Assembly (NCBI GenBank): GCA_028287105.1
Contig: JAQBQH010000274.1
Location: forward strand, 8,215 to 72,214
DNA: 64,000 nt
Reading direction: 5' to 3'
From: Myxococcales bacterium
GTDB taxonomy: Bacteria; Myxococcota_A; Polyangia; Palsa-1104
Program-made: the position numbers and the translations under genes
Shown: positions 17,945 through 54,119 of the stretch, in pieces
How the letters are laid out: the number at the start of each line of letters is the position of its first letter
How positions within the stretch are numbered: the stretch's first letter is position 1
Notes under the pieces: model-generated
Databases searched by the model: none
Told to the model about the DNA's origin: nothing
The model's input: only the letters and a program-made list of their open reading frames with translations

Positions 17945-17946
17945 GG

Positions 17947-18603: not shown

Positions 18604-18605
18604 GC

Positions 18606-18974: not shown

Positions 18975-18990
18975 ACAACTGGGGGCGCCC

Positions 18991-20544: not shown

Positions 20545-20657
20545 GCGATCCGCGCGACAGGCTGCTCGGGCGCTTCCGCGCCAGCGCGCTCGATCGGCTG
20601 CGCCGCATCACGCTCGCGCTCATCGAGATCGAGGCGGGGCGCGGCGACGCCGAAGCC

Positions 20658-22673: not shown

Positions 22674-24019
22674 GCAGCGGCGCCGATCGCACGCACCGGC
22701 TCGCGGCGCTGTTCGCCAGCCGCACCGGGATCGACCTCGAGCGCGGCAACCAGGCGCCGTCGCTCGAGCGCTTCGTGCTGCAACGGAGCCGCGAGCTGGG
22801 GCTGCCGTCGTTGGATGCCTACGTCGAGGTCCTCGCCGGCGACTCGCCCGAGCTTCGCCGGCTCATCAACGCCACCACCATCGGGCTCTCGTGGCTGTTT
22901 CGCGACGCCGAGCAGCTGGCGGCGATCGAGCGGCTCTTCGACGAGCTCCCCGACCGCGAGCGGCCGCTCGAGCTCTGGGTCGCGGGCTGCGCGCGCGGCG
23001 AGGACGTCTACTCGCTGGCGATGCTGGCGGCGGCGCACGGGCGGCGGGTCTCGATCCTCGGCAGCGACATCAACGGCGATTTCTTGGCGCAGGCGGCCGA
23101 GGGCACCTACGGCGCGTGGTCGTGCCGGCACGTGCCGGCGCGGCTGGCGCACGACCTGGTCGGTCAGAGCGATGCGCGCCGGACGGCGTCGCCGGCGCTG
23201 CGCCGGTCGGTTCGCTTCGTGCGCCACAACCTGCTCGACGCGCCGCCCCGGCCGGAGCATGCCGCCGCCTGGGACATCGTTCTGTGTCGCAACGTGCTCA
23301 TCTACTTCCATGCGGCCGAGGCGGCGGCGACGGTGACGCGCCTCGCCAGCTCGCTCGCAAACGACGGCTGGCTCTTTCTCGGCGCCAACGAGCCGTGGTC
23401 GCCGGCGCGCCTGGAGCCGGTGTCGATCGCCGGCCGCATCGCGTTTCGTCGCGCCAATGCCGCCTCCGTGCCGTCGCTGCCGTTCGACGCGCCGCTGGCG
23501 CTACCACAGCCGCCGTCGTCGCCTGCGACGGCGCCCGCGCAATCGTCGTGGCCGGCGGACGAGGCGACGGAGCCGGGCGAGGCCGCCGTCGCGACCGAGT
23601 CCCCGTCGCTGCCGGCCGAGGTCAGCGAGCTCTTGCGCGCGGCCGCCGATCGCCACGTCGAGGGGCGCTTCGCCGACGCGCTCACTCTCTATTCGCAGGT
23701 GCTCGCCATCGCGCCGCTGCTTCACGAAGCGCACCTGCTGCTCGGCGTGACGCACTACATGCTGGGCGACCACGCCACTGCCGTGCAGGCGCTGCGCGCG
23801 GCGCTCTTCCTCGATCCCGATCTCTGGCCGGCGGCCTTCTACCTGGCGCTCAGCCACGACAAGCTCGGCCACCGCAGCGAGGCCGCGCGCGCCTATCGCG
23901 ACGTGCTGGCGGCGGCCAACAAGCCGCAGCGCTTCTCGACGGTGGTGCTCGATCAGCTCGGCGTCTGGAAGGCGGACATCGTGCAGATGGCCCGCGCGCG
24001 GGCCGGGCAGGCGCGATGA
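22670..24019 (+). CDS. cheR: CheR-type MCP methyltransferase with C-terminal TPR domain
   Basis: LWVAGCARGEDVYSLAMLAA (SAM-binding region), WDIVLCRNVLIYF, C-terminal TPR-like HYMLGDHATAVQALRAALFLDPDLW. GTGA overlap with cheA. Confidence 0.85.
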   Translation: MSSGADRTHRLAALFASRTGIDLERGNQAPSLERFVLQRSRELGLPSLDAYVEVLAGDSPELRRLINATTIGLSWLFRDAEQLAAIERLFDELPDRERPLELWVAGCARGEDVYSLAMLAAAHGRRVSILGSDINGDFLAQAAEGTYGAWSCRHVPARLAHDLVGQSDARRTASPALRRSVRFVRHNLLDAPPRPEHAAAWDIVLCRNVLIYFHAAEAAATVTRLASSLANDGWLFLGANEPWSPARLEPVSIAGRIAFRRANAASVPSLPFDAPLALPQPPSSPATAPAQSSWPADEATEPGEAAVATESPSLPAEVSELLRAAADRHVEGRFADALTLYSQVLAIAPLLHEAHLLLGVTHYMLGDHATAVQALRAALFLDPDLWPAAFYLALSHDKLGHRSEAARAYRDVLAAANKPQRFSTVVLDQLGVWKADIVQMARARAGQAR

Positions 24020-25059
24020 CGCCGACGCGCATCTTCGTCATCGACGACTCGCCCCTGTTCCGCGAGATGCTGCGCGGCATCGTCGAAGCCGACGGCGACA
24101 TCGTGGTGGTCGGCGAAGCGGCATCGGGTGAAGAGGCGATTGCGCGTGTGGCGTCGCTGGTGCCGGATCTCGTCACCGTCGACATCGAGATGCCGGGCGT
24201 CGGCGGCCTCGAGACCATCGCGCAGCTCATGATGCGGCGGCCGGTGCCGATCCTGGTGCTCACGGGGCAGCCGACCGGCGAAGGCAGCTCGCTGGCGTTC
24301 GACGCCATCGGCCGCGGCGCGCTCGAGATCGCGTCCAAGTCGTCGCTCGGAGACGACGACGGTCGCGGGGTTCGACAGCTCATCAAGCAGCTCGGCACGG
24401 TTCGCGTCGTGCGCCATCTCGGGCCTCAACACCATCCGCCGGTCCGGGTGACGCCGGCGCTGCGCGTGCCGCCGCCGCGCGGCTGCTTCATCGTCGGCAT
24501 GGCCGCGTCGAGCGGGGGACCGTCGGCGATTGTCGAGGTGCTCGGGGCGCTGCCGCCCGATTTCCCCGGCTGCGTGGCGCTGGTGCAGCACCTCCCCAAC
24601 GGCTTCATGGCGCCGTTCGAGCGCTTCCTCGCCGAACGCCTGGAGCTGACCGTCGCGGTGGTGCACGCGCGGACCCTGCCCCGGCCGGGCACGCTGCTCT
24701 TGCCCGCCGATGACCGCCACCTCCTGCTCGCCGACGACGGCGCCTTCGTGGTCTCGGACACGCCGCCGCTCGGCGGCCATCGACCGTCGGCGACGCGGCT
24801 CTTCGAGTCGCTGGCGCGCGTCGAGGCCAGCCGCGCCGTGGGCGTGATCCTCAGCGGCATGGGAGACGACGGCGCCGCGGGCCTCCTGGCGCTCAAGCGC
24901 ACGGGAGCCGAGACCGTCGCGCAGAACGAGGCGACCTCGGCGATCTACGGCATGCCGCGCGCGGCCGTCGAGCGCGGCGCGGCGACCCAGGTGCTGCCGC
25001 TCGGATCGATCGCGGCGCTGCTGTGCCGGCTCGCCGTCGAGCGTACGCGCCCGTCCTGA
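24016..25059 (+). CDS. cheB: CheB-type methylesterase (REC + esterase)
   Basis: RIFVIDDSPLFRE...VTVDIEMPGVGG, then GMAASSGGPSA (catalytic Ser) and ILSGMGDDGAAGL. ATGA overlap with cheR. Only this part of track ORF 22618..25059 is coding. Confidence 0.9.
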   Translation: MTPTRIFVIDDSPLFREMLRGIVEADGDIVVVGEAASGEEAIARVASLVPDLVTVDIEMPGVGGLETIAQLMMRRPVPILVLTGQPTGEGSSLAFDAIGRGALEIASKSSLGDDDGRGVRQLIKQLGTVRVVRHLGPQHHPPVRVTPALRVPPPRGCFIVGMAASSGGPSAIVEVLGALPPDFPGCVALVQHLPNGFMAPFERFLAERLELTVAVVHARTLPRPGTLLLPADDRHLLLADDGAFVVSDTPPLGGHRPSATRLFESLARVEASRAVGVILSGMGDDGAAGLLALKRTGAETVAQNEATSAIYGMPRAAVERGAATQVLPLGSIAALLCRLAVERTRPS

Positions 25060-25084
25060 CGCGCTGAGGCCCGCGGGGCTGGTA

Positions 25085-25450
25085 CTAGGCCGTCAGCCGC
25101 TCGGCGTCGAGCACCAGCAGCGGCGGCTGACCGTCGGTGACGACGACGTGCGAGAACCACCCGACGTGCGCCGCCAGCGCCGCCGGCAGCGACAACAGCT
25201 GCTCGCGCTGGACGTAGCGCAGCGTCACAGCGCCGCTCACCAGCGCCGCCAGCGGCGAGCGCCCCTGCCGCGTGACGACCAGGATGCGGACCGCCCCCTC
25301 GTCGCTGGTTGCGCCGATCAGCTGTACGAGGTCGAACGCCGCCTCGCCGGTCCAGCGCTCGAGCGGAATGACCTCCTGCACCTGCGCTGCCGAGAGACCG
25401 AGATCGAAGTCGCGCGTGCGCACGACCATGAGCGCCAGCTCGTCGCTCAT
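25085..25450 (-). CDS. cheW: CheW-like coupling protein
   Basis: 121 aa. LALMVVRTRDFDLGLSAAQVQEVIPL ... LVLDAERL. ATGA overlap with the upstream cheW. Confidence 0.8.
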   Translation of the reverse strand: MSDELALMVVRTRDFDLGLSAAQVQEVIPLERWTGEAAFDLVQLIGATSDEGAVRILVVTRQGRSPLAALVSGAVTLRYVQREQLLSLPAALAAHVGWFSHVVVTDGQPPLLVLDAERLTA

Positions 25451-25878
25451 GCCGCCGTCGGCGGGGCCAGCACGCGCAGCAGATCCTCCAGATCGATGAG
25501 CGGCATCGGAACGCCGTCGAGGTGGACCTCCATCGTGGAGTGCCGGAGCCGGGTCAGGTGCGCGGGGCGCACCGCGTCGTCGGGCACCTCTTGCACCTCG
25601 CGCACGCCCTCGACGGGAAGCGCCAGCGTCGCGTCTGCGATGTTGACGATGACCGTGCGCCGCCGGCTCTCGCCCGACGTCATCGCGGCGCTGCCGCTGA
25701 GCGGCCCGAGGTCGAGCACCGCCACCGCCCGTCCGCGCCACGCGATCACGCCCGGCATCTCTGGCGGCGCGCCGACGATGGGCACCCAGCGCAGCTCGCC
25801 GAGGATTTCCTGGACGGCGCTGGCGCGCACGACGAACCAGACGTCGTGGAGCTTCGCCGGGACGATGCTGAGGGTCAT
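25447..25878 (-). CDS. cheW: CheW-like coupling protein
   Basis: WFVVRASAVQEILGE...GVIAWRGRAVAVLDLG...LIDLEDLL. ATG 25876-25878 is preferred over TTG 25917. Confidence 0.8.
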   Translation of the reverse strand: MTLSIVPAKLHDVWFVVRASAVQEILGELRWVPIVGAPPEMPGVIAWRGRAVAVLDLGPLSGSAAMTSGESRRRTVIVNIADATLALPVEGVREVQEVPDDAVRPAHLTRLRHSTMEVHLDGVPMPLIDLEDLLRVLAPPTAA

Positions 25879-25950
25879 GGTCTCTCGATTATCGCCCGAC
25901 GAGCGGCGCGCGGTCAACGCTGAGTGTCTGCCGCGACGACGAATCGGCGA

Positions 25951-27522
25951 CTAATCGTCGTCGTTGCCTTCGTCGTCGTCGGCGACCGGCAGCCTGTGCG
26001 TGTGCTCCAGGCGGACGGCGTCGAGATCGTGCCCCTTCAGGCCGAGCGCCTTGAGGATCGTCGGCGCCACCTGACGGATGCTGACCGTCTGGTTGACCTC
26101 GCCCTGTTCCACGTGCGGGCCGGCCATGACCATCGCGACGTGTCGATCCTCCTCGCGGAGGCCGGCGTGGTCGCACAGCTTGCTGCCCGCCGTGGCATAG
26201 ACGACGCCGGGGCCCGGCTGCACCAGGATGTCGGGGTGGCGGGTCGGATTGCCGGACATCTCGCCGTGGAACAGCGCGTCGATCTCGCTGCCCACGTAGA
26301 TCTGTCCACCACCGATGTTCGCCGAGTGGGCGCGCAGCACGTCCGCCACTTCCGCGGCGCGGCTGTGGTCGGTCAGCCAGATGAGCGCCAGGGTGTCTGC
26401 CGTGACCTGCGCGGACAGACCGGGGCTGACGCTGTTGATGAGGGCCGGGAAGGTCGCATCCGGATCGATCGGCACGAACGTCGAGCGGTCCACCGGCGAG
26501 TTGCCGTGCTTGGAGGCCATGATGACCAGCGTCGAGTCGGTGAGACCCTGCGCGTCCATCTTGGCGAGCATGCGGCCGATGGCCTGGTCCACGTAGTCCA
26601 TCGCCTGCGCCAGGCCGGGCGCCTTGCCGGCCGCGGCGCCGATGAAGGCGACGGTGTCGGGAATCGTGCCGGCGGCATCTTTGTAGCCGGAGAACTTCTG
26701 GGCGATGTTCACCGCCTGGAAGTTCATGCCGAGGATGGCGGGAACGCCCACCTGCGTCGCGCCCGTGTGGTCGAAGCCGTCGAGCTGGTGCAGCACGGCC
26801 ACGACCTTGAGCTCGTCGTTGGCAATGATCTTGGTGATGTCCTTCTTGGCGGCGTTGAACTCGGGGCCGTAGAAGTCATCGAGGCCCGTACCGGAGGGGC
26901 CGTTGAGGATCTCGTAGCTCGGGTGCTTGTCGGCCACGGCCGTGCGCATACCGGCGGCCTTGATCACCTCGTAGATGGTGTTCACTTTCAGGTACTGGTG
27001 CGGGAAGACGGGCGTGCAGCCGGCGTCGGGATCGCGCGGCAGCTTGGCGACGTTGATGTCGGCCACGCCCGAGCCCGTGTTGGCGTTGAAGTTGATGGTC
27101 TCTTTGTACGAGACCAGCGCGCCGCGCGTGGCGCAGTTGGAGCCCGCCGGCGACAGCCGATCGTCCCACGAGGCGTCGTAGTACACGCCCGTCGACACCG
27201 GCGACCCACCGGTGGTCATGGCGAGGGTGGCCGGAAACGAGTCCGACGGCGCCGTCGAATAGGCCTGCGTATACGTCGTTCCGCGCGCGACCAGCGACGC
27301 GAGCGCCGAGGTGGGATGTGCGGCAACGTAGTTGGTCAAGTCGAAGTCATGGAATCCGTCGATGCTGAGTAGGAGCACGTGCTCCACACCATGGCCATGG
27401 CCGTGGCCGTGGTCGTGGTCCTCGCCGCGGATGGCCGACTGCGCCACGCCCACCGTCGGGTTGGCGCCACATCCGAGCCACATGAAGCATCCTGCCACAG
27501 CCAACTTTTTCCGCGCGCTCAT
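25951..27522 (-). CDS. Secreted alkaline-phosphatase-superfamily enzyme (type I phosphodiesterase / nucleotide pyrophosphatase-like) with His-rich N-terminus
   Basis: ATG 27520-27522 follows AAGGAG. Lipoprotein-like signal (WLGC), GEDHDHGHGHGHG, LLLSIDGFHDFD, PSDSFPATLAMTTG, MASKHGN. Confidence 0.75.
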   Translation of the reverse strand: MSARKKLAVAGCFMWLGCGANPTVGVAQSAIRGEDHDHGHGHGHGVEHVLLLSIDGFHDFDLTNYVAAHPTSALASLVARGTTYTQAYSTAPSDSFPATLAMTTGGSPVSTGVYYDASWDDRLSPAGSNCATRGALVSYKETINFNANTGSGVADINVAKLPRDPDAGCTPVFPHQYLKVNTIYEVIKAAGMRTAVADKHPSYEILNGPSGTGLDDFYGPEFNAAKKDITKIIANDELKVVAVLHQLDGFDHTGATQVGVPAILGMNFQAVNIAQKFSGYKDAAGTIPDTVAFIGAAAGKAPGLAQAMDYVDQAIGRMLAKMDAQGLTDSTLVIMASKHGNSPVDRSTFVPIDPDATFPALINSVSPGLSAQVTADTLALIWLTDHSRAAEVADVLRAHSANIGGGQIYVGSEIDALFHGEMSGNPTRHPDILVQPGPGVVYATAGSKLCDHAGLREEDRHVAMVMAGPHVEQGEVNQTVSIRQVAPTILKALGLKGHDLDAVRLEHTHRLPVADDDEGNDDD

Positions 27523-27559
27523 GGCATCGTCTCCTTGACGGACTTCATCGCCGACACGG

Positions 27560-27575
27560 AGCAAGCACCATGCCG
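27560..27575 (-). promoter_or_regulatory. Sigma-54 (-24/-12) promoter candidate: CGGCATG-GTGC-TTGCT
   Basis: The minus-strand reading of 27575..27560 matches TGGCACG-N4-TTGCW at GG, GC, TTGC and exact spacing, with two mismatches. The -12 GC lies about 39 nt upstream of ATG 27522. A GAFTGA activator is encoded divergently. Confidence 0.65.
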
Positions 27576-27633
27576 CGTGTCTCCCGATGAATCGAAAGCT
27601 TCGAGATTGAAAGTGTTTCTCCAAACCGTCGCT

Positions 27634-27651
27634 GCTGCGTCGCTACGCAGC
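27634..27651. promoter_or_regulatory. Inverted repeat GCTGCGT-cgct-ACGCAGC (candidate activator UAS)
   Basis: Read directly. It is centred about 70 nt upstream of the -24 element. Confidence 0.35.
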
Positions 27652-27790
27652 ACTGTCCGGATTCCGGTTCGGTTCACCCGTAAACCGTCGAGAAGACTCT
27701 ACGAAAACTTTTCCGAGGGTCGCGTTTGCCGGAGGAGCGCGCGAAGTGGCTGACGGCAATCGTGAATCGCTACCGGGTGCCCGTCGCTGT

Positions 27791-27806
27791 GTCCTGAAAT
27801 CAGGAC
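27791..27806. promoter_or_regulatory. Perfect 16-bp palindrome GTCCTGAAATCAGGAC
   Basis: Read directly. It lies 95 nt upstream of the activator start (27901) and about 220 nt upstream of the -24 element. Confidence 0.35.
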
Positions 27807-27900
27807 GGGTGCGGCGAAATGTCGCAGGCGATCTTGCACGCGCTCAAAGCGCTCGTCGAAAGCGACAGGCATGCGACGCGCGTGATATGGTCGACTGCCC

Positions 27901-29237
<1,337 letters not shown>

Positions 29238-29241
<4 letters not shown>

Positions 29242-29543
29242 CCAGAGCGGCGTTGCGGCGGCGCCAGCTCGTCGATGCGGCGCCACAGCTTGTACAGCGT
29301 CATGACGATGGTGGGGTCGTCGATGCCGCCTACGATGCGCAGCGCGCGCTCGCCATCGCGGGCCATGGTCGCCACGTCGTGCAGACCCATGATCGACGCT
29401 TCACCGGCGATGGTGTGCAGGTCGGCGGCGATCGACGGCGCCGCGTTGGCACCGTCGGCGATCAGCTTCGAGGCTCGCTCCAGCCGCTCGCGCGCGCTGG
29501 CGACGAAGCGGGGCAGGAACTTGGCGCGGATGTCGTCGATCAA
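29238..29543 (-). CDS. Stand-alone Hpt protein (paralog of 13009..13314)
   Basis: IAADLHTIAGEASIMGL Hpt motif. FLPRFVASARERL aligns with GRRFIHSARERL of the other copy. Confidence 0.75.
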
Positions 29544-29932
29544 CTCGGCTCTCCACCGGCGCCGATGATCTGCTGCACGCGCAGCACGATCGCCTCGGCC
29601 CCCATCTGCTTCGAGATGAATCCGTCGATGTCGGCGTCGGCGGCGCGCCGCTTGAGCTCGGCGTCGTCGAGCGTCGATAGAAGGTAGATGGGCGCGTCGA
29701 CCTCACGGGCGGCGCGCAACACCATCGCCACGTCGTCGCCGAACGCCTCCGGCATCTGCACGTCCATGAGCACCAGGTCTGGACGGTTGCGACTGCGATG
29801 CTCCTCGAGCTGCGTCAGGTTGTTGGCGATGAGCACCTCGTAGCCGGCCGCGTCGAGCGCCGCGCGCATCATGTCGAGCACCAGCGCGCTGTCGTCGACG
29901 ATGAGAATCTGTTTACGCCTGACCGCCATCAT
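29540..29932 (-). CDS. Single-domain response regulator (paralog of REC2 of 13311..14423)
   Basis: ILIVDDSALVLD ... LVLMDVQMPEAFGDDVA ... ISKQ, compared with LILLDVQMPEAYGDDVA in the fused copy. Confidence 0.85.
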   Translation of the reverse strand: MMAVRRKQILIVDDSALVLDMMRAALDAAGYEVLIANNLTQLEEHRSRNRPDLVLMDVQMPEAFGDDVAMVLRAAREVDAPIYLLSTLDDAELKRRAADADIDGFISKQMGAEAIVLRVQQIIGAGGEPS

Positions 29933-30651
29933 CGCTGCGCTCCGTGCGCGTTGAGCCGCTCGAGGGTGGCGAACAGATCTTTGAGCACCAGGGGCTTATC
30001 GAGAAACAGATCGGCGCCCGCCGCCAGGGTGGCGTCGCGGGCGGTCGGCCCACCGACGCTGACGGCGACGATCGGAACGTTGGCCAGCCGCGGCTCGGCC
30101 TTCATCCGCTGCACCAGCTGCGCGCCATCCAGCTCCGGTAGGAAATAGTCGACGATGGCGAGGTCGTAGGAGGCGCCGGCGAGCATCTTCCAGGCGCTGG
30201 CGCCATCCGCCGCGTGGTCGACGGTGACGTAGCCCGGCTTGCCGCGGAAGTACTTGCGGATGCCGTACGAGAACATGTCGCGAATGAGGTTGTTGTCCTC
30301 GACGAGGAGGACGTGGAAGCCCGCGAGCGCGTCGGCGGCCGGCTCCTCGGCGACCGTCGTGAGCACGGTGTGCAGCCGCTCGGCGTCGGTCGGTGAAGCC
30401 GGTTCGATCTCGAGCTCCAATCCCGACGGCTCGCCCGGCGCCGCCGACGTGGTGACCGAGGTGACACGGCCGATCACCTCGAACGGCTCGACCAGCCGCG
30501 GAAACGACAAGCGAACGAGCACTTCGGCGTTCACCGCGAGCTGGACGTCGGTCTCGATGAAGGCTTCATCGTTGGCCAGCTCGAGCGTGTGTGCGACGAA
30601 CGGGGCGTGCCCGTCGCACTGGACCTCGGCGCGCAAGAGGATCCGCTTCAT
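29929..30651 (-). CDS. PilZ-like domain + one receiver domain
   Basis: ATG 30649-30651 (MKRILLRAEV, RxxxR). REC is VLLVEDNNLIRDMFSY...LAIVDYFLPELDG...LDKP. Aligns along its length with the first two domains of 13311..14423. Confidence 0.75.
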   Translation of the reverse strand: MKRILLRAEVQCDGHAPFVAHTLELANDEAFIETDVQLAVNAEVLVRLSFPRLVEPFEVIGRVTSVTTSAAPGEPSGLELEIEPASPTDAERLHTVLTTVAEEPAADALAGFHVLLVEDNNLIRDMFSYGIRKYFRGKPGYVTVDHAADGASAWKMLAGASYDLAIVDYFLPELDGAQLVQRMKAEPRLANVPIVAVSVGGPTARDATLAAGADLFLDKPLVLKDLFATLERLNAHGAQR

Positions 30652-31025
30652 CGTGGGCTCCCAGGAAGAAGAAAGCGTCCAACCGACTGCGCCAGCGCGT
30701 GCGCGTTCGAGGTCTTGGCGATGAAGCCGGCGGCGCCGCAGTCCTTTGCCAGGGCGGACAGCTCGCCCGCGGGCCGGTCGGAGAAGAGGACGATCGGACA
30801 GCGATGGAGATTGTGCTGGCGCGTCACCGTGACGATGTGGTTGCCGGAGAGCGCGGGCATCGAGACATCGAGCAGTACCAGGTCCGGCTTCTCGCGGCCG
30901 AGCGCGCGGCTCAACCCGAGCCCTGATTCGAGCGTGACGACTTCGTAACCAAATCCCTCGAGCATCATGCGCGTGAGGTCGCGACACAGGTCACTGTCGT
31001 CGACCACGAGGATCTTCTGCGGCAT
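30648..31025 (-). CDS. Single-domain response regulator (paralog of 18606..18974)
   Basis: ATG 31023-31025. KILVVDDSDLCRD...LVLLDVSMPALSG...CPIVLFSDRPAGEL...FIAK. Confidence 0.85.
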   Translation of the reverse strand: MPQKILVVDDSDLCRDLTRMMLEGFGYEVVTLESGLGLSRALGREKPDLVLLDVSMPALSGNHIVTVTRQHNLHRCPIVLFSDRPAGELSALAKDCGAAGFIAKTSNAHALAQSVGRFLLPGSPR

Positions 31026-31203
31026 TCTGGGCGCCTCCACCGATCGCGTGATCGGTGCGAGTCGATTGTGCACGGATTGGCGCGCACTATTCAGTATCAA
31101 CACGCACGAATATTTACCGCGGTATAACGTGGGTGTTGGGTGGCTTCGCACCGACGTGCGGCAATTTGTCGCAGCGCTGATCCGCCGCACGCGCGACGGC
31201 GCT

Positions 31204-32802
31204 TCAGGGGCCGTTCTTGCGGACCCAGAGGCGAGCGCGGTCGGTGACGAGCTGGCCGGTGGTCGAGTCGGCGAAGGCGGGGATCCCCGACGTGGGGCTG
31301 TAGCTTTGCGCGGCGCCGACTGCGAACCACCAGCACCCCAGCGTGTCGCCGTCGAGCGCCGCGAACGCGCCGCGCTGGGCCAGCCCGAGGAACGCGCTGC
31401 AGCCCACCTGATTGGTCGGCGACATGACGACGTTCGAGAGGGTGCCGCCGGCGCCCGAGAGCGGATCGGCGCTCTGCTTCCACTGCACGCTCGCGCTCTC
31501 GGTCTGCCCGAAGGTGAGGCGGAGCTCGAAGACGCCGCCGCTGCTCGCGAAGAGCGACAGCCGATTCAGGATGCCCCACTGCCCGCCGTTGGGCGCGGTG
31601 GTGTTGACGCCCGCGAGCCAGGTCGCGGCGGGGAGGTAGCCGAGCGCGACGTCTTGATCGTTGAGCTCGGTCCAGCCGCCGTTGGTCATGTCGCAGTAGA
31701 CCTGCATGCCGCTGACGCCGCCGGCGCCGTCGGGATCGACGCTGTAGATGCCGTTGCCGGGGGTGCCGCCGTGGGTGAGGATGTCGTAGCAGTCGGCGCG
31801 CAGGTTCTGGCAGGTGGCTCCGAAGTAGCCGGCCTCGCACGCGCTGCACGTCGACGAGTCGGTGCAGCTGGTGCAGTGCGCGGGACAGGCGGTGCACACG
31901 GTGTCGCTCGTCGGGGTGCAGGCGGCGGCCTGGAACGTCGCGCCGCTACAGACGCTGCAGGTGCTGCAGACGCGATCGCTGGTGGCGCCGCAGGCCGCGC
32001 TCTGATATTTGCCGCTCGGGCACATGCCGGAGCAGGCCGCGCAGCTGTCGCTGACGCCGTCGACGAGGTAGTAGCTCGCGGCGCAGGCGGCGCACTGCTG
32101 GTCGCTCGCGGAGCTGCAGGTGGGCGTCGTCGCGCAGTGGGCGATCGCGGTGCAGCCGCTGCAGACGCGGTTGCTGGTGGCGGCGCAGGCCGCGCTCTGA
32201 TACTGGCCGGACGGGCAGCCGACGGAGCAGGCGGCGCAGCTGTCGGCCGCGCCGTCGACGACGTAGTAGCTCGCGTCGCAGGACGCGCACTGCTGATCGC
32301 CGGCGGAGGTGCAGGTGGGGGCGGCGGCGCAGTGCGCGATCGAGCTGCAGGCGCTGCACACGCGGTCGCTGGTGGCGGTGCACGCTCCGCTCTCGTACTC
32401 GGTCGCGGCGCAGCTGGTGCACGCGCTGCAGACGCGATCGACGGTGGCGCTGCAGGCGCCGGTCTCATGGGTGCCGGCGGCGCAGCTGGTGCAGGGCGCG
32501 CAGCTGAGGCCGGTGCCGGTGTAGCCGGCGGCGCAGGCGCAGCTGAACGCGCCGGTGCTATTGGTGCAGGTCGCGTGCGCGTCGCAGCTGTGGGTGCCGG
32601 CGGCGCACTCGTCGATGTCGGCGCACACGCTGCCGTCGCCGGCCGGGTCGGAGTAGCTCGCGGGACAGGTGCAGCGCGCCACGCCGCTCGCTTCGCTGCA
32701 GGTGGCGAGCGGGTCGCAGGTCAGCGTGGCGCACGTCGGTGCGGTCGGCTCCGAGCACGCCGCGGCCAGCAGAAGGCCAAGCAGGCAGATGGGTTTCAAC
32801 AA
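31204..32802 (-). CDS. Lipoprotein with a Ca-binding EGF-like domain, TNFR/ephrin-receptor-like Cys-rich repeats and a C-terminal fibrinogen-related domain
   Basis: Signal LLLAAAC. DIDECAAGTHSCDAHATCTNSTGAFSCACAAGYTG (EGF-CA). About 8 repeats of C..C..G.Y.....C.ATSDRVC. Then ADCYDILTHGGTPGNGIYSVDPDGAGGVSGMQVYCDMTNGGWT ... GCWWF (FReD-like). Confidence 0.75.
   Translation of the reverse strand: MLKPICLLGLLLAAACSEPTAPTCATLTCDPLATCSEASGVARCTCPASYSDPAGDGSVCADIDECAAGTHSCDAHATCTNSTGAFSCACAAGYTGTGLSCAPCTSCAAGTHETGACSATVDRVCSACTSCAATEYESGACTATSDRVCSACSSIAHCAAAPTCTSAGDQQCASCDASYYVVDGAADSCAACSVGCPSGQYQSAACAATSNRVCSGCTAIAHCATTPTCSSASDQQCAACAASYYLVDGVSDSCAACSGMCPSGKYQSAACGATSDRVCSTCSVCSGATFQAAACTPTSDTVCTACPAHCTSCTDSSTCSACEAGYFGATCQNLRADCYDILTHGGTPGNGIYSVDPDGAGGVSGMQVYCDMTNGGWTELNDQDVALGYLPAATWLAGVNTTAPNGGQWGILNRLSLFASSGGVFELRLTFGQTESASVQWKQSADPLSGAGGTLSNVVMSPTNQVGCSAFLGLAQRGAFAALDGDTLGCWWFAVGAAQSYSPTSGIPAFADSTTGQLVTDRARLWVRKNGP
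31969..32358 (-). repeat. Tandem duplication, 2 x 195 nt (2 x 65 aa Cys-rich unit), inside the CDS
   Basis: CSACSSIAHCAAAPTCTSAGDQQCASCDASYYVVDGAADSCAACSVGCPSGQYQSAACAATSNRV is followed by CSGCTAIAHCATTPTCSSASDQQCAACAASYYLVDGVSDSCAACSGMCPSGKYQSAACGATSDRV. By eye roughly 80% nucleotide identity. Confidence 0.8.
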
Positions 32803-32842
32803 CTCATTTTACCATTGTCGCGGCCAGCGACAACATGCGCCA

Positions 32843-33841
32843 CTAGCGACCCGAGTAGACGACGCTGACGTTGCTGAAGCCCCCGTTGGAAAGGTTGGTC
32901 TGGGTCGAGGCCGTGCCGTTCCGGTTGAACGTGAACGTGCCCTGATTGTTCTGCGCGGCCTGCGTGGCGTTGCTGTCGGCGAGCTCCATGCGGATCGTGT
33001 AGATCCCGTCGGCGGGGGCCGACAGCGGCGGCGCGGGCGACTGGCGCGAGGTCAGATCCCACTTGGCGGTCAGCGTTCCGTAGGCGGCGTTGGTGGCGCC
33101 CGACACTGCGTCGACGTCGGCGTTGCCGGCCTTGGTCACCCAGCCGACCAGCTTTCCGCGCCGCGTGTTGGCCCAGCGTCCCACCGTCTTGACGAAGGTG
33201 CCGCCGGGCCCTTCGATCCACACCGCGACCACGTTCTTCGGATCGTACGGCGAGGCGCCGGCCGAGGGAGACGCGGAGGTGGTGAAGGTCAGCGTGACGA
33301 GCTCCGAAGATTTCATGTCCGTCCCGCTCGGGGTCGAGGCCATGTCGGCAGGTGCCGGCAGACCGGACGCCGAGTACGGCGCACCGGCGTCGAGCCATGC
33401 CTGCCAGCGCTGATAGGTAGGGTCGGCCGGGGAGGCGAAGGGCTTGGTTCCGCCGTGCGAGACGCTGCCCTGGAGCGGCTTGGTCAACAGGAGCGAAGCG
33501 GCGCCGCCGGACAGGCAGTCGAGCGTGGTGCAGTCGACACGAATGTTGGTGTAGTTGCTCATCCAGTCGGCGGCGGCGGCGGGCATCGCCGTGATGAGCG
33601 GCGAAGCGGAGCCGCCGTGGCAGGCGGAGGCGGTGCAGCCGAGCGTATCGAGGTCGTGCTGGATGTCGGGGGCGAAGTAGGCCGGCGCTTTGCCGCCGGT
33701 TGCGGGGTCGCTGGCGAGATCGCTCGACGCGGCAGCCATGTCCGGGCCGGCGGTGGAGCTGTTGTCGAAGGATCCGAGACAGCCGCCGGCGGCCAGCGCC
33801 AGACCGAGCGGTACGCCGAGCCGCGCGAGGGAGGAGAGCAT
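32843..33841 (-). CDS. Lipoprotein: N-terminal CX4CH (cytochrome-c-like?) domain + C-terminal DUF2271-like domain with a flavinylation motif
   Basis: ATG 33839-33841 (MLSSLARLGVPLGLALAAGGC). GCTASACHGG at 33617-33637. VVAVWIEGPGGTFVKTVGRW...DVDAVSGATNAAYG (D-x-x-S-G-A-T at 33092-33112) ...GIYTIRMEL. Confidence 0.7.
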   Translation of the reverse strand: MLSSLARLGVPLGLALAAGGCLGSFDNSSTAGPDMAAASSDLASDPATGGKAPAYFAPDIQHDLDTLGCTASACHGGSASPLITAMPAAAADWMSNYTNIRVDCTTLDCLSGGAASLLLTKPLQGSVSHGGTKPFASPADPTYQRWQAWLDAGAPYSASGLPAPADMASTPSGTDMKSSELVTLTFTTSASPSAGASPYDPKNVVAVWIEGPGGTFVKTVGRWANTRRGKLVGWVTKAGNADVDAVSGATNAAYGTLTAKWDLTSRQSPAPPLSAPADGIYTIRMELADSNATQAAQNNQGTFTFNRNGTASTQTNLSNGGFSNVSVVYSGR

Positions 33842-34004
33842 TCGGGCTCGAAATGCACCGATCAGGCCAGCGGATCGCGTGGCGTAACGCGAAGAAATGA
33901 TTGGTCGGTGGGTGAGAGTATCGTCGACGAGTGGGCGCCGATTCCCCCAGGGCCGATGTCTGGCGTGCGCACACCCGCGACCGCGATCATGCTTATCGAA
34001 ACGC

Positions 34005-34208
34005 ATGAAAGTCCTTGCCCTCTTCGTCATCGCCATCGCTCCGCTCGCCGGCTGCAGCTCGGTCAAGCCGTACCAGCGAGAGTGGCTCTCACAGCCGGGG
34101 ATGAGCTTCGACTCGGCGTCGGCGAACGCCGACCAGCACGTCCTCGAATCTCGCGAAGCCTCGTTCGGCGGCTACGGCGCGACCGGCGGCGGCTGCGGCT
34201 GCAACTAG
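34005..34208 (+). CDS. DUF4266 lipoprotein
   Basis: MKVLALFVIAIAPLAGCSSVKPYQREWL...ESREASFGGYGATGGGCGCN. The GGGCGCN C-terminus is the family hallmark as I recall it. Confidence 0.75.
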   Translation: MKVLALFVIAIAPLAGCSSVKPYQREWLSQPGMSFDSASANADQHVLESREASFGGYGATGGGCGCN

Positions 34209-34209
34209 A

Positions 34210-35433
34210 TCAGAAGCGCCCCGAAGCGGACAGCCCGAGCAGGATCGCGCTCGCCCATCCCTGCGTGCGCGCCACGTTCGGCGGGTCCGGCGTCAGGGCG
34301 AAGACCTTGGTCCAGTTGACCAGCACGCTCGCATCCATGTCGGTGAACGCGCGCCAGTAGCGCGTCGCTTTGTAGCCGGCCCAGGTCGCGCGCGCGCCGA
34401 GGAGCAGGTCGGCGAGCGGCGCCAGCGCCTGATCGGCGGTGAAGAAGCTGCCGACCGGACCGCTGCGATCGTACGAGTCGGCGGCGGTCACGTCGCGGAA
34501 GAAGATCGCTCCCGACTGCACGTAGCCGCGTGCGCGCACGCCGAACCGCCACGCCGGGCGCGCCTGACGAAACGGCTGCTCGTAGCTCGCCTCTCCGGTC
34601 AGCGATTGGATGCCCCAGGTGTCGCGATAGAGGCGCAGATCGAAACCGAGCGTGCCGTGCACCTCGGCGATCGCGTAGCGGACGCGCGCAGTGACGGCGC
34701 CGCGGTCGCGCACGCGAGGATGCGACTCCTGCGCCAGGAACAGGCCGCCAGACAAGCGCACCGTGCGGTAGGGGTTCGACTGAAAACCGGACAGGTGTTG
34801 GTAGCTGCCGACGAGGGTGCCGGCCCAGCGCGGGCTGAGGGTCTGCACCCACGAGAGCTCGGCGCTGTCGATGCCGACGCTCTCCTCGGTGAGTTGCGGA
34901 TTTCCCGAGAAGCAGCCGGTGGAGCGGTCGAGCGGCTGTCTGAGCGTCACCGCCAGGCTCTCTTGATTGGCGAGGTTGCAGACGGAGTCGAAGCCGTGGC
35001 TGTAGCTGGCCGCGAGGACCGTGTTGTGCTGCAGCAGATCGGCCTTGAGATTGGCGCGCAACAGGTGCGATCGGTAGTCGCTTTCGTTGCCGAAGGAATA
35101 GCCGCCGAGGAGCGTGAGCATGCGCCAGGTCGCCTCGGCGGCGACGCCGACGAGGTTGCGCGTTTCGCTGAACTGGGTCGCGGCGCTGATGACGTCGGCG
35201 GGGCCGTAGGTGCGCGGCGTGGCGCCGGTGACGACGTCGGCGAGCCACTCGGCGTCGAACGCGAGCCAGCCAGTGGCGTTGACGTGCGCCGACGCCGAGG
35301 GCGTGATGACGACGAGCGTGTCGCCGGGCGCCGGCTGTACGTACAGCTGTAGCGCGGCGTGCGCGTCGCCGCGGTCGTCGGCGCGCACGCGACCGCCGAG
35401 GAGCAAGAGGCCGGCCAGGACCAGGCGCTTCAC
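34210..35433 (-). CDS. DUF3570-like outer-membrane beta-barrel protein
   Basis: GTG 35431-35433 (VKRLVLAGLLLLGG signal). ADVVTGAT, FSETRN, YSFGNESDYRS, LLQHNTVLAASYSHGFDSV. Alternating-residue strands; terminal F. Confidence 0.7.
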   Translation of the reverse strand: MKRLVLAGLLLLGGRVRADDRGDAHAALQLYVQPAPGDTLVVITPSASAHVNATGWLAFDAEWLADVVTGATPRTYGPADVISAATQFSETRNLVGVAAEATWRMLTLLGGYSFGNESDYRSHLLRANLKADLLQHNTVLAASYSHGFDSVCNLANQESLAVTLRQPLDRSTGCFSGNPQLTEESVGIDSAELSWVQTLSPRWAGTLVGSYQHLSGFQSNPYRTVRLSGGLFLAQESHPRVRDRGAVTARVRYAIAEVHGTLGFDLRLYRDTWGIQSLTGEASYEQPFRQARPAWRFGVRARGYVQSGAIFFRDVTAADSYDRSGPVGSFFTADQALAPLADLLLGARATWAGYKATRYWRAFTDMDASVLVNWTKVFALTPDPPNVARTQGWASAILLGLSASGRF

Positions 35434-35891
35434 GGCCGCGCCACCCACGTCTCGAGGAGCGTGGCTGCCGTCGCCCGATCGAGCACTACCGGACCCGGCG
35501 GATGGAGGTTGCCGAGCCCCTCGGGGACGGTGAGCAGCCGACTCTCGAGCGGCGCATCGCAGCGGACGAGGTGAATCGCGGAGAGATAGGTCTCGCGCCA
35601 GCTCGGGTCCCACGCCTCGAGCGGCAGTCCCGGCGTCGGCGCGGGCGTCTGCAAGGTGCGCAGCCGCAGGACGCCGTGGCCGTCATCGAAGGAGTGACAG
35701 CCGGAGCTGCCACACTGATTTGGGACGAAATAGCGCGGGTAGATGTCGGAGACGAAGAAGTCGCGCGATGGCGCGCACGGCGCAGCGTCGGGCGGCGCCC
35801 CGGTGGCGATGGTGCATGCGGCGGTGGCGCAGAGGGCCGTGGTGCAGAGGAGGAGGGCCGCCCAGCGCATCGGATGAACACATCTAGGCAC
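35430..35891 (-). CDS. Secreted/lipoprotein with CX4CH motif (paralog of the N-domain of 32843..33841)
   Basis: DIYPRYFVPNQCGSSGCHSFDDGHGVLRL (35694-35714), compared with DIQHDLDTLGCTASACHGGSASPLI. ATG 35870 (MRWAALLLCTTALCATAAC) is an alternative start. GTGA overlap with DUF3570. Confidence 0.6.
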   Translation of the reverse strand: MPRCVHPMRWAALLLCTTALCATAACTIATGAPPDAAPCAPSRDFFVSDIYPRYFVPNQCGSSGCHSFDDGHGVLRLRTLQTPAPTPGLPLEAWDPSWRETYLSAIHLVRCDAPLESRLLTVPEGLGNLHPPGPVVLDRATAATLLETWVARP

Positions 35892-35901
35892 GGGGCTGTG
35901 C

Positions 35902-36348
35902 GTGTCTATGATGACGGGGATGCGTTCCTGCTCGCGTCGTCAGTTTCATGGGCTCGTGCTGGCCGGCGCCGGGTTTGCGGTGCTCGGCTGCAACCAGGGT
36001 GCGGCGCCGGATGGAACGGTGGCGGCCGCAATGGGGCGGGTCACGTTGCCGTTCGCGATGTTCCCCAAGCTGGGGGCCGTCGGTGGCAGCGTCGTCGTCG
36101 ACGTCACCGGAGAATTCCCTATCGTGGTCGTGCGCACCAGCGACACGGCGGCGACTGCGCTCAGCGCCACGTGCACGCACGCGGCCTGTCTGGTGGACTA
36201 TGCGGCGGCGGCGAACGACCTCCACTGTCCGTGTCACGACGCCAACTTCGCGCTCGACGGCAGCGTCAAGAACGGGCCGACGATCATCCCGCTGCCGGTG
36301 TACCCGGCGCAGGTGGGCGCCGACGCGATCGTCGTCAATCTGACGTAG
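35902..36348 (+). CDS. Tat-exported Rieske [2Fe-2S] lipoprotein
   Basis: SRRQFHGLVLAGAGFAVLGC (twin-Arg signal plus lipobox). CTHAAC ... CPCHDANF Rieske ligands. Confidence 0.8.
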   Translation: MSMMTGMRSCSRRQFHGLVLAGAGFAVLGCNQGAAPDGTVAAAMGRVTLPFAMFPKLGAVGGSVVVDVTGEFPIVVVRTSDTAATALSATCTHAACLVDYAAAANDLHCPCHDANFALDGSVKNGPTIIPLPVYPAQVGADAIVVNLT

Positions 36349-36357: not shown

Positions 36358-37380
<1,023 letters not shown>

Positions 37381-42614: not shown

Positions 42615-43670
42615 TTACGGATTGAAGAAGGGATCGAGCGCCATCGCCTTGAAGGCCGCCAACGTCGGCGGCGACGAGGCGATGCGCCAATCGGTCTCTT
42701 TGTTGATGTCGAACCACACCACCGCGTGGATCGCGGTGAAGCGGGTCTGGAGCTGTTGACGTAGATCGGCGATCCAGGCCGCCTTGTTGCCGCCGACCTC
42801 GGCCGACGCCGTCTCGGGGACCATGAGCGGCTTACGCCCGGCGTAGTCGGTGTAGAGGTCGGTCACCAGCTCGCCGAACGACTGCCAGGTGCAGCACGAC
42901 GACGAGGTGCCCCAGTTGTAGGCGTCGAGCCCGACCCAATCGACGTAGGCGTCGCCGGGGTAGTAGTTGGTCCAGTGGTTCCACGCCTCGGCCGGAACGT
43001 CGGCCACGAGCGGGCACCAGACCCAGACGACGTTGGTGGCGCCGTCGGCGACGAAGAGGTCGTGAACGTGGCGATAGGCCGCGATGTACTTGGCCGGTCC
43101 CGCTTCCTTGCCGTTGTTGGCGCCGGACCAGGGGTACCAGTTGCCGTTCATCTCGTGGCCCCAGCGCAGGAAGATCTCGGCGCCGAGATCGCGGGCGCCC
43201 TTGGCGCGCAGATGGAAGACGGCGTCGTGCATACCGGCGATGATCTCGTCGAGCGGCTCGTGCGGCTCCCAGGTGACGAGCGGGATCTTGTGCTGCGCGA
43301 TGTCCCAGCGGGTGCGGTCGTTGATCCAGTCCTCGTAGGAGTAGAAGCGGTTGTCGATGACCCAGGCGCGGTCGATCAGCTTCTCCTCGTCGAGGAAGTC
43401 CTGCTCGGCGTTGCCGCCGACGCCGACGAAGGCGCCGAAGAGCGCGCCCGAGGCCGGCGGCGTGCGTGCCGACGGCGGACCGGCCGACGCCATGTCGACG
43501 ATGCCGGTGGCGCCGTCGGCGCTGCCGCCATCGACGTCGGCGCCGTTGCCGCCGTTGCCTCCCGCCAGGTCGGCGGGATCGCCGCTGGTGGCCGGGGACG
43601 TTCCGTGACTGCAGCCTCCGCCCGCCAACAGGGCCAACAGCGGCGCCAACATCGTACGCGTGGTCATCAT
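42615..43670 (-). CDS. GH26 family glycosidase (beta-mannanase-like) lipoprotein
   Basis: MMTTRTMLAPLLALLAGGGC follows GGAGGA. FLRWGHEMNGNWYPWSG, VDWVGLDAYNW, LMVPETAS. Confidence 0.85.
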   Translation of the reverse strand: MMTTRTMLAPLLALLAGGGCSHGTSPATSGDPADLAGGNGGNGADVDGGSADGATGIVDMASAGPPSARTPPASGALFGAFVGVGGNAEQDFLDEEKLIDRAWVIDNRFYSYEDWINDRTRWDIAQHKIPLVTWEPHEPLDEIIAGMHDAVFHLRAKGARDLGAEIFLRWGHEMNGNWYPWSGANNGKEAGPAKYIAAYRHVHDLFVADGATNVVWVWCPLVADVPAEAWNHWTNYYPGDAYVDWVGLDAYNWGTSSSCCTWQSFGELVTDLYTDYAGRKPLMVPETASAEVGGNKAAWIADLRQQLQTRFTAIHAVVWFDINKETDWRIASSPPTLAAFKAMALDPFFNP

Positions 43671-43688
43671 GCTCCTCCGCGGTCCGTC

Positions 43689-43713
43689 ACTTTGTTCGGT
43701 TGCGCAACAAAGT
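43689..43713. promoter_or_regulatory. Operator candidate ACTTTGTT-N9-AACAAAGT (copy 1)
   Basis: Perfect 8-bp arms, 19 nt upstream of the GH26 start codon. Confidence 0.55.
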
Positions 43714-43963
43714 AGCGAACGGAGGTGATGTTTCAACACAAATCGGCAGACGCAGCGCGGCGACGAAAGTGGCGAAAGCCGCAAGCTTCGGGAATGTGCG
43801 GCAATGGCCGACGGCCGATCCGTGTCGCTATTTTAAGTCCCAGCGACCTATCGGGAACTTGACGCGTGGCGCCTCAAAGTTCTTCGCTGGGCGGGATCGG
43901 CTGGGCACGCTAGCGTCGTCCTGCGATCGTACGAATTGGCTTGAATTGTTTCCAGCGCTGGAT

Positions 43964-45299: not shown

Positions 45300-46523
45300 A
45301 TGGCCGGCGAGAACGCCCAAGCAACCGTCGACGCGCAGGGGATGCGCGCGCGCAACAGCGCGCTCCTGCTGAACCTCATCTGGAAGGAGCGTCAGGTGTC
45401 GCGCGCCGATCTGGCGCGGCGCACCGGGCTGAGCCCGTCGACGGTGTCGGCCATCGTCGGCGATCTCGAGCGCTCGGGGTTGGTGCAGTCGACCGGTGAA
45501 GGGATCTCGCGCGGCGGCCGTCGCCCGACGCTGCTCGGCTTCTGCGACGACGCCTTCGCCATCGTCGGCGTCGAGCTGGGCGCCTCGCACGTGCTGGTCA
45601 CGCTGACCAACCTGCGCGGCGAAGTGCAGGCGGCGCGTCACGGCGCGCACGCGGTGCAGGGCGATCCCGAAGGCGCGCTGGCGCTCATCCGCTCGTCCAT
45701 CGACGACTGCCTGCGCTCCGAGCGGGTCGCGCGCCGTCGCCTCCTCGGGATCGGCGTGGCGGTGCCGAGCCCGGTCCATCCGAGCGCTCCCGGCCGGCTG
45801 TCGCCGCTCATCTTGCCGGCCTGGAGCGGCTACGACGTGCAGGCGCACCTCGCCGGCGCCTACAACGTGCCCGTCTTCGTCGACAACGACGCCAACCTCG
45901 GCGCGCTCGCCGAAGGCTGGTGGGGCGCCGGCCGCAGCGGCGACGACCTCACCTATATCAAGGTCGCGACCGGCATCGGCGCCGGCTACGTCATCCGCGG
46001 CGAGGTCTATCGCGGCGCCGGCGGGACGGCGGGCGAAATCGGCCACCTCGCCGTCGATCCCTCGGGACCGCGCTGCGTCTGCGGGCTCAACGGCTGCTTG
46101 ACCACCTTCATCGGCTCGAAGGCGATCCGCACGCTGGCGCGCGAGCGCATGACCGGCGAGCGCGGCCGCACGCCGACCATCGCCGACATCGTCAAGAGCG
46201 CCAAGGCCGGCGACGCGGCGGCGCGCACGATCGTCGACGAAGTGGGGCACTTCCTCGGCATCGCCGTGGCGGGCCTGGTCAACCTCATGAACCCGGCGGT
46301 GGTGGTGCTCGGCGGCGAGATCACGGCGGTCGGCGACCTGCTGCTCGATCGTCTGCGTGAGACGGTGCGCGCGCGCGCGCTGTCGACATCGGTCACCGAG
46401 ACGCGGCTGGTGACCAGCAACCTCGGCGAGCAGGCGATCGCGGTCGGCGCGGCGACGCTGGTGCTGCAGGCGGCGCTGCACGATCGCGCGCTCTTCCCGA
46501 CGCCGTTTCTGGCGGTGTCGTGA
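45300..46523 (+). CDS. ROK-family transcriptional regulator (wHTH + sugar-kinase-like fold)
   Basis: AGGAGA RBS and ATG 45300. VSRADLARRTGLSPSTVSAIVGDLE HTH. DNDANLGALAE. GEIGHLAVD..GP.CVCGLNGCLT (ROK Zn motif). Confidence 0.85.
   Translation: MAGENAQATVDAQGMRARNSALLLNLIWKERQVSRADLARRTGLSPSTVSAIVGDLERSGLVQSTGEGISRGGRRPTLLGFCDDAFAIVGVELGASHVLVTLTNLRGEVQAARHGAHAVQGDPEGALALIRSSIDDCLRSERVARRRLLGIGVAVPSPVHPSAPGRLSPLILPAWSGYDVQAHLAGAYNVPVFVDNDANLGALAEGWWGAGRSGDDLTYIKVATGIGAGYVIRGEVYRGAGGTAGEIGHLAVDPSGPRCVCGLNGCLTTFIGSKAIRTLARERMTGERGRTPTIADIVKSAKAGDAAARTIVDEVGHFLGIAVAGLVNLMNPAVVVLGGEITAVGDLLLDRLRETVRARALSTSVTETRLVTSNLGEQAIAVGAATLVLQAALHDRALFPTPFLAVS

Positions 46524-52736: not shown

Positions 52737-54119
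<1,383 letters not shown>

Follow-up and report, generated by a model that had tools for sequence, protein, structure and literature searches.

The DNA analysed here is a stretch of 64,000 nucleotides from a Myxococcales bacterium (contig JAQBQH010000274.1 of assembly GCA_028287105.1, positions 8,215 to 72,214), referred to in its full length as the window. Between positions 32843 and 36348 it holds a group of genes for exported proteins: a predicted outer-membrane beta-barrel of the DUF3570 family, a small DUF4266 lipoprotein, a lipoprotein of 146 amino acids with a C-x4-C-H motif, a Rieske lipoprotein, and a lipoprotein in which a C-x4-C-H domain is fused to DUF2271. A preliminary description of this DNA had proposed that these five genes could make up one unrecognised redox chain between the periplasm and the outer membrane, with DUF2271 as the flavin carrier. 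Our comparison with related loci indicates a conserved unit of four genes, without the DUF2271 fusion, around a barrel that carries a flavinylation motif of its own. All motifs listed below were re-read from the sequence at the coordinates given.

The DUF3570 protein matched its Pfam family (PF12094) with E = 1.1e-25 and 90.8 bits against a cut-off of 25. Its AlphaFold2 model, built from a 39-sequence alignment, had 16 strands and a predicted local distance difference test score (pLDDT) of 83.7. A Foldseek search with this model returned 377 PDB matches at E <= 1e-3; all of the 50 matches listed were outer-membrane beta-barrels, including OccK/OprD, AlgE, PgaA and BcsC (E about 1e-8) as well as PelB. 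Of 114 homologues, 106 end in F, W or Y. The product is predicted to be a 16-strand outer-membrane beta-barrel, which agrees with the preliminary description. What that description did not notice is that this protein has its own flavinylation motif, DVVTGAT (motif 1, residues 66-72, positions 35218-35238), as well as a degenerate second one, DVISAAT (motif 2, residues 80-86, positions 35176-35196), with SAAT at its end. Motif 1 was strict in 114/114 full-length DUF3570 homologues checked, and its consensus in the clade was D-[VI]-V-[ST]-G-A-[ST]. Provided that the N-terminus is in the periplasm, as it is in outer-membrane proteins of known structure, all long loops would be outside. The two motifs, which the model puts where strand 3 ends and in the loop of residues 70-88, would then face the cell surface or fold inwards into the lumen. 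This placement relies on a low-confidence region of the model, where the rest of the loop carrying motif 1 (residues 72-87) had a pLDDT below 50. Flavinylation of DUF3570 and DUF2271 by ApbE has been proven by experiment, DUF3570 being one of two new ApbE substrates (Méheust et al. 2021, eLife 10:e66878; PMC8238504). From the conservation of motif 1 and the published biochemistry on a homologue, covalent flavin mononucleotide (FMN) is expected at the motif 1 site.

The GTG start codon of the DUF3570 gene overlaps the stop codon of the 146-residue lipoprotein gene (GTGA), which points to translational coupling of the two genes. The DUF4266 gene converges on DUF3570, and one base separates the two stop codons. 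Its product matched PF14086 with E = 3.6e-17 and ends in GGGCGCN, as had been reported; this C-terminal CxC has been described for DUF4266 proteins (PMC8238504). The preliminary description had remarked that DUF4266 is convergent with DUF3570 and not upstream of it. This arrangement is no oddity but is conserved in the clade, as the DUF4266 gene has the same position in the relatives' loci L003/L007, L004 and L008. The positions of the genes and of the other features are collected in Table 1.

Table 1. Position, strand and basis of assignment of the features discussed (window coordinates)
Feature	Position	Strand	Basis
EGF/TNFR-repeat lipoprotein	31204-32802	(-)	
C-x4-C-H + DUF2271 fusion lipoprotein, 332 aa	32843-33841	(-)	
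DUF4266 lipoprotein, 67 aa	34005-34208	(+)	Pfam
DUF3570, predicted outer-membrane beta-barrel	34210-35433	(-)	Pfam, AlphaFold2
146-aa C-x4-C-H lipoprotein	35430-35870	(-)	Motif, alignment of homologues
Sigma-70-like promoter of Rieske gene	35885-35912	(+)	Promoter scan
Tat-exported Rieske [2Fe-2S] lipoprotein	35920-36348	(+)	Pfam
Ser/Thr kinase	36358-37380	(-)	

The gene order around the barrel was followed through the gene neighbourhoods of relatives and by tblastn of the window proteins against all fetched loci. The arrangement in which the Rieske gene diverges from the 146-residue lipoprotein gene, which is followed by DUF3570, with DUF4266 convergent, was kept in order and orientation in L003/L007, L004 and L008, whose DUF3570 proteins were 80%, 59% and 60% identical to that of the window, respectively. 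At a distance of 8 kb, the L008 contig carries another cluster (18442-20444), paralogous and colinear, with the order Rieske, C-x4-C-H, DUF4266 and DUF3570. The DUF3570 identity of this cluster was 28%, its Rieske protein has 214 residues and a Gly-rich linker, and its C-x4-C-H protein (CSFLACH) has 175. In the more distant Myxococcota loci L005, L006, L010 and L011 (34-39% DUF3570 identity) we found a triad of a C-x(n)-C-H lipoprotein, DUF4266 and DUF3570. There the place of the Rieske gene is taken by a gene for an SH3_3 protein of about 256 residues with a C-terminus like that of outer-membrane proteins (…YF or FF); the C-x(n)-C-H gene and DUF4266 flank this gene (L010 8980-9750; L011 8993-9778; L006 7838-8611; L005 about 8880-9639). 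By synteny, the conserved unit is made up of four genes, namely Rieske, the 146-residue lipoprotein, DUF3570 and DUF4266, and of three in the wider phylum, and not of five; the four-gene core was seen in four independent Polyangia loci and in the one colinear paralogous cluster. Conservation of the neighbourhood was borne out for these four: exported components of redox type are gathered around an outer-membrane barrel in a conserved syntenic unit. In another relative, L009 (9598-12112), a Cys-rich lipoprotein of 129 residues is encoded upstream of the 146-residue lipoprotein gene, and a gene for Csp (copper storage, PF03860) follows DUF3570.

The 332-residue fusion protein stands apart from this unit. 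Its flavinylation motif, DAVSGAT at 33092-33112, and the CTASACH of its N-domain at 33617-33637 are present as described. The protein itself scored 27.1 bits against the Pfam DUF2271 model with its cut-off of 27.3, and DUF2271 was matched by 20/20 members of the fusion family (best E 2e-8), so the DUF2271-like assignment holds. Homologues with 55-60% identity to the fusion were annotated as DUF2271, and D-x-x-[ST]-[GSA]-A-[ST] was kept in 119 of the 120 DUF2271 homologues listed, the query included. The block D-I-x(n)-C-x4-C-H that the fusion shares with the 146-residue protein reflects true homology: hhalign of the two families gave E = 2.7e-4 over 118 colinear columns, and a profile of 35 diverse members of the 146-residue family matched 20/20 fusion N-domains at 26-47 bits. 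In addition, the L006 lipoprotein beside DUF3570 matched the fusion N-domain directly in tblastn. By these comparisons the fusion N-domain belongs to the family of the 146-residue C-x4-C-H lipoprotein. The fusion gene diverges from DUF4266 across 163 nt and adjoins the core genes only in this lineage. Its orthologues (P0014 in L002, P0019 and a gene of L016) lie in unrelated neighbourhoods, which places the DUF2271 fusion outside the conserved unit. When the window proteins were used in tblastn, DUF3570, DUF4266 and the 146-residue lipoprotein gene were found in none of about 40 metagenomic DUF2271 loci, and myxobacterial DUF2271 genes were scattered singletons. The proposed syntenic set of five genes was present in no relative found.

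Another pairing of DUF2271 with a putative heme protein, unlike that of the window, was seen in L020 (7910-10609), where a MYXO-CTERM DUF2271 protein is encoded right after a protein of 642 residues with two CXXCH motifs, which by eye is like a di-heme cytochrome c peroxidase (MauG-like). Near the L020 DUF2271 gene we also considered a Rieske-like match. It turned out to be the N-terminal domain of a protein of 553 residues, apparently a cytoplasmic flavoprotein of ferredoxin-reductase type, and was rejected as unrelated.

The gene for the 146-residue lipoprotein had been given a start at 35891; the gene stands, and on re-reading its start is most likely 35870. Its product carries CGSSGCH at 35694-35714. 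Among its 81 close homologues none had a Pfam domain (0/81), and when 1.84 billion representative proteins were searched with a profile, only 62 clusters appeared at E <= 1e-3. Judged by these searches, the lipoproteins form a rare and previously undescribed family. Residues C53, C58, H59, H123 and W142 are invariant across it, the two Cys and two His being its sole invariant polar residues, while C32 and C104 co-occur or are lost together, as would be expected of a disulfide pair. The order of elements is an N-terminal helix, the C..CH motif, a conserved S-x-L-L-x-x-P, the His, and a C-terminal helix with the Trp; 64 residues lie between C..CH and the invariant His in the window protein and about 55-65 elsewhere in the family.

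This layout of helix, C…CH, distal ligand position and C-terminal helix with an aromatic residue is like that of class I c-type cytochromes, from which the family differs in having CX4-13CH for CXXCH and His for Met at the distal position. CX4CH is an accepted variant of the heme-c attachment site, a His right after the second Cys is a hallmark of heme-c sites, and Pfam includes a Geobacter CxxxxCH model (PF09698). The C-x4-C-H domain is presumably also similar to the Planctomycete cytochrome c PSCyt1 (PF07635). The context of the motif is helical, and both window proteins have CX4CH. An X4 spacing was found in 80/81 close homologues of the 146-residue protein; among family representatives the spacing was X4 in 38, X5 in 10, X7 in two and X8 in one, the L005 member had X13, and one fusion orthologue had X5. 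The AlphaFold2 model of the 146-residue protein was all-alpha with a pLDDT of 86, and Foldseek found no match for it in the PDB. Profile searches of PDB sequences with the family likewise gave nothing, and a comparison of 35 diverse members with the Pfam cytochrome families at E <= 5 gave no meaningful match, one member reaching E = 0.21. With a Cys spacing that varies (4, 5, 7, 8, 13) and a model unlike any cytochrome fold, a c-type heme at the C-x4-C-H centre is possible, no more; alternatively, the centre may be a metal site of Cys2His2 type or a redox-active disulfide.

Two members of the wider family deserve mention. L056 (675-1517) encodes a protein of 280 residues in which a C-x4-C-H domain of the fusion type (CIVAACH) is followed by a C-terminal CXXCH domain (CAACH). 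The latter gave sub-threshold matches to Cytochrome_CBB3 (E = 1e-3) and PSCyt1 (E = 0.026), and also to Cytochrom_C. Comparison of this CXXCH domain with the C-x4-C-H profile by hhalign gave a probability of 0.75%, which is not significant, and a relationship between the two was discarded. The cultured Haliangium ochraceum DSM 14365, whose genome is complete, has a family member with CX5CH spacing, Hoch_2404 (ACY14941.1; P0346/P0388); the 148-residue representative of this species differs from the called gene product.

The Rieske protein has the twin-arginine sequence SRRQF, the lipobox VLGC and the ligand motifs CTHAAC (36172-36189) and CPCH (36226-36237), and matched the Rieske family of Pfam with E = 7e-13, in keeping with the preliminary description. 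RRxF, CTHxxC and CxCH, which provide the twin-arginine translocation (Tat) motif, the ligands and the disulfide cysteines, were invariant in 5/5 cluster-linked Rieske homologues. Its best sequence matches among solved structures were b6f/bc1 domains, including the small 5cxm and 8hn2, both deposited as cytochrome b6-f complex iron-sulfur subunits; 5cxm we take to be Synechocystis PetC3. With these stand-alone b6f-type proteins the window Rieske shares a compact domain with CTHxxC…CxCH ligands and the cysteines of the high-potential disulfide, but the sequence similarity is limited to the cluster-binding half. Unlike them, it has a Tat signal and lipobox and is tied to an outer-membrane barrel cluster. 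The gene product is probably a Tat-exported lipoprotein of the high-potential bc1/b6f type. Neither the window nor L007-L009 showed a cytochrome b domain.

The Rieske and 146-residue lipoprotein genes are divergent, and the 37-nt spacer that separates them contains a sigma-70-like promoter that scored 9/12 matches in the promoter scan, with TAGGCA, 16 nt, TATGAT and a further 7 nt to the ATG at 35920. Since the -10 box lies only 7 nt from this ATG, the Rieske mRNA would be leaderless or nearly so. Position 35920 (MRSCSRRQF…) is most likely the start of the gene, in preference to 35902 or 35908. The blocks CTAGGCAC and GTCTAT were invariant in the spacers of L004, L007 and L008, whose proteins share only 45-80% identity. 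A sigma-54 promoter was considered for the spacer and rejected, as reading the aligned spacers by eye revealed no -12 element that is both conserved and properly spaced; a -35/-10 pair of sigma-70 type accounts better for the conserved blocks.

The combination of DUF3570 and DUF4266 has been described before, in a system consisting of ApbE, DUF3570, a thioredoxin-like protein, DUF4266 and sometimes DsbD (Méheust et al. 2021, eLife 10:e66878; PMC8238504). The module can therefore not be called wholly unrecognised: its DUF3570 and DUF4266 components are already published as flavinylation-associated, and the flavin carrier of the published system is DUF3570, not DUF2271 (PMC8238504). As in this 'DsbD-type' system, a motif-bearing DUF3570 is paired in the window with a small, secreted DUF4266 protein that has CxC at its end, and every component is exported. 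It differs from the canonical clusters in that ApbE, the TlpA-like thioredoxin (PF13899) and DsbD are missing from the window and from the 10 kb around its relatives, in having Rieske and C-x4-C-H lipoproteins instead of the usual partners, and in its degenerate motif 2 and the inversion of DUF4266 relative to DUF3570. In the literature we found no account of DUF3570 being partnered by a Rieske or C-x4-C-H protein. The fusion protein is like the PepSY-like/DUF2271/DUF4198/ApbE clusters of iron-reductase type (PMC8238504) in being an exported DUF2271 protein with a conserved D-x-x-S-G-A-T, and unlike them in the fusion to an N-terminal C-x4-C-H domain; neighbouring PepSY-like, DUF4198 or ApbE genes were found neither in the window nor beside L002, L012 and L014. 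With porin-cytochrome conduits of the MtrAB type the likeness is one of concept only, an outer-membrane barrel with periplasmic redox proteins. Unlike those conduits, the window cluster has no multiheme cytochrome, and the barrel itself would hold FMN on a loop.

As stated in the preliminary description, apbE (PF02424), thioredoxin and ccm domains were absent from the approximately 38 open reading frames of the window scanned with Pfam, and so was dsbD; none of these four turned up in 526 kb of related loci either. Thioredoxin-like (PF13899) and DsbD (PF02683) domains were also missing from the window scans and the Pfam lists of L007-L011. One weak tblastn match to ApbE, in L021 (E = 2.5), was dismissed as a probable artefact of high-GC DNA translated off-frame.

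We lean towards the interpretation that the locus is a Polyangia variant of the DUF3570/DUF4266 extracytoplasmic ApbE-flavinylation system, acting as a redox module. The DUF3570 barrel would stand at the centre with FMN on the motif 1 loop, and the DUF4266 (CxC), 146-residue (C-x4-C-H…H) and Rieske lipoproteins would be tethered around it. This set of partners is evident from synteny and signal sequences, and we infer that it functions as a redox chain. The Rieske and C-x4-C-H proteins would stand where ApbE, the TlpA-like thioredoxin and DsbD normally sit, with ApbE acting in trans from another locus. Electrons would be exchanged among the Rieske cluster, the C-x4-C-H centre, the CxC pair and the FMN on the barrel, on a path that would link the periplasm with the outer membrane or the cell surface; the C-x4-C-H centre could be a heme of c type, a metal site with Cys2His2 ligands or a redox-active disulfide. 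As the C-x4-C-H domain is translationally coupled to DUF3570 and fused to DUF2271, reasoning from domain fusions suggests for it a role alongside protein-bound FMN. The strict conservation of motif 1 argues that flavinylation persists and that ApbE is encoded elsewhere. Several observations weigh against this interpretation. A tblastn search with E. coli ApbE/Ftp found nothing in the window or in 56 related loci (526 kb), so that flavinylation would depend on a gene outside the loci searched. Motif 2 matches [ST]GA[ST] strictly in only 10/109 homologues, about 90% of the clade deviating from it. No inner-membrane point of electron entry (DsbD, PepSY, cytochrome b) is encoded nearby, and L009 has the 146-residue lipoprotein gene and DUF3570 without Rieske or DUF4266. 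A further-reaching version, which we regard as doubtful, would have DUF3570 carry electrons over the outer membrane by its flavin without multiheme cytochromes, and in Myxococcota the barrel would be fed or drained by small C-x(n)-C-H cytochromes or metalloproteins of a new class and by a Tat-exported, high-potential Rieske lipoprotein held in the periplasm. In that version, domains flavinylated by ApbE would have in C-x(n)-C-H a redox partner of their own, found beside DUF3570 and fused to DUF2271.

The chain as first proposed, in which all five genes act together, both C-x4-C-H domains are c-type cytochromes and electrons pass from flavin to heme to Fe-S, seems to us unlikely. Heme would be attached to the two Cys, with the adjacent His as proximal and the invariant downstream His as distal ligand. 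The acceptance of CX4CH as a heme-c variant, the existence of PF09698, the invariant distal His in a layout that mirrors class I cytochrome c, the L056 protein that pairs a fusion-type domain with a CXXCH domain giving sub-threshold cytochrome-c matches, and the position of the fusion gene next to the core in this genome all speak for such a chain. It has to contend with a Cys spacing that ranges from 4 to 13, with the lack of a significant Pfam cytochrome match in 35 diverse members even at E <= 5, with a model of pLDDT 86 that has no Foldseek counterpart among the many cytochromes c of the PDB, with empty profile searches of PDB sequences, and with a fifth gene that is syntenic in no relative. 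We give some, though limited, credence to the same module with a C-x(n)-C-H lipoprotein that is no cytochrome and forms either a thiol-disulfide relay with the CxC of DUF4266, replacing the TlpA-like thioredoxin, or a metal centre (Cu, Zn or Fe) with Cys2His2 ligands. In that case the module might handle metals or sense redox state at the outer membrane. The C-x(n)-C-H gene fills the thioredoxin-like slot of the canonical clusters, its variable Gly-rich inter-Cys loop would suit a disulfide or metal better than a heme-lyase motif, and only two Cys and two His are invariant among its polar residues. In L009 the copper-storage Csp gene after DUF3570 occupies the place of DUF4266, and 25 canonical DUF3570/DUF4266 clusters include the VIT1 iron transporter (PMC8238504). 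The all-alpha model, however, has neither a thioredoxin nor a cupredoxin fold, the His directly following the second Cys is typical of heme-c sites, and no metal transporter was found in the window cluster.

It is very improbable, in our view, that DUF3570 of this clade forms just a common channel of the outer membrane or a structural barrel with accessory lipoproteins, with a motif that is a structural relic and holds no flavin and with a Rieske protein that belongs to some unrelated oxidoreductase of the periplasm. In favour of such a barrel, none of the loci examined has ApbE, motif 2 is degenerate, and what Foldseek matched were channels for substrates and exporters of polysaccharides. Against it, motif 1 is strict in all 114 homologues, while the rest of its loop (residues 72-87) was modelled with a pLDDT below 50, the barrel stays linked with three Cys/His/Fe-S proteins across deep divergence, down to the 28% DUF3570 identity of the L008 paralogue, and the partner domain is also fused to a second flavinylation domain.

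More than 500 clusters of the DUF3570/DUF4266 system have been catalogued. To this the present locus adds the prediction that flavinylated DUF3570 forms an outer-membrane barrel of 16 strands whose flavin site is on a loop facing the surface or the lumen, a lineage in which thiol-based partners have given way to an Fe-S and a novel Cys/His-motif protein, and a rare new domain tied to two unrelated flavinylated domains (DUF3570 and DUF2271). If the proposed redox function is true, cells would have a means of moving electrons to or from their surface that relies on flavin, as an alternative to porin-cytochrome conduits. Hoch_2404 of H. ochraceum makes the idea testable in a cultured organism.

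The G+C content was about 70% across the window, and the named sources of close homologues were metagenome-assembled genomes of Polyangia, Myxococcales or Deltaproteobacteria. The host is a soil myxobacterium of the Polyangia class. Genes for a Ser/Thr kinase and for FHA-domain sigma-54 activators repeatedly flank the DUF3570 clusters of Myxococcota (window 36358-37380 and 27901-29241; L005 11309-12676; L008 6855-9531 and 12620-18223; L010 12387-15444; L011 11443-12384), which hints that kinase/FHA/sigma-54 signalling may control these clusters. The EGF/TNFR-repeat gene lies 41 nt downstream of the fusion gene, and a promoter-like site at 32806-32833 belongs to it. Its product is a lipoprotein of 532 residues with EGF_CA/EGF_3 and five cysteine-rich TNFR_c6 repeats, eukaryote-like domains that are rarely met in bacteria. 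Positions 13311-31190 form a region of chemosensory type, with a methyl-accepting chemotaxis protein (18991-20544), CheR-TPR (22670-24019), CheW (25447-25917) and several response-regulator genes (13311-15035, 29540-29932 and 29929-31190); a TonB-dependent receptor is encoded at 15036-17039. The window also encodes several secreted glycoside hydrolases (675-1772, 7609-9114, 42615-43784, 46520-47464 and 52737-57302), comprising GH113, GH26 with a ricin lectin domain, a second GH26, GH16 and a GH2-like protein of 1521 residues, which suggest a polysaccharide-degrading lifestyle.

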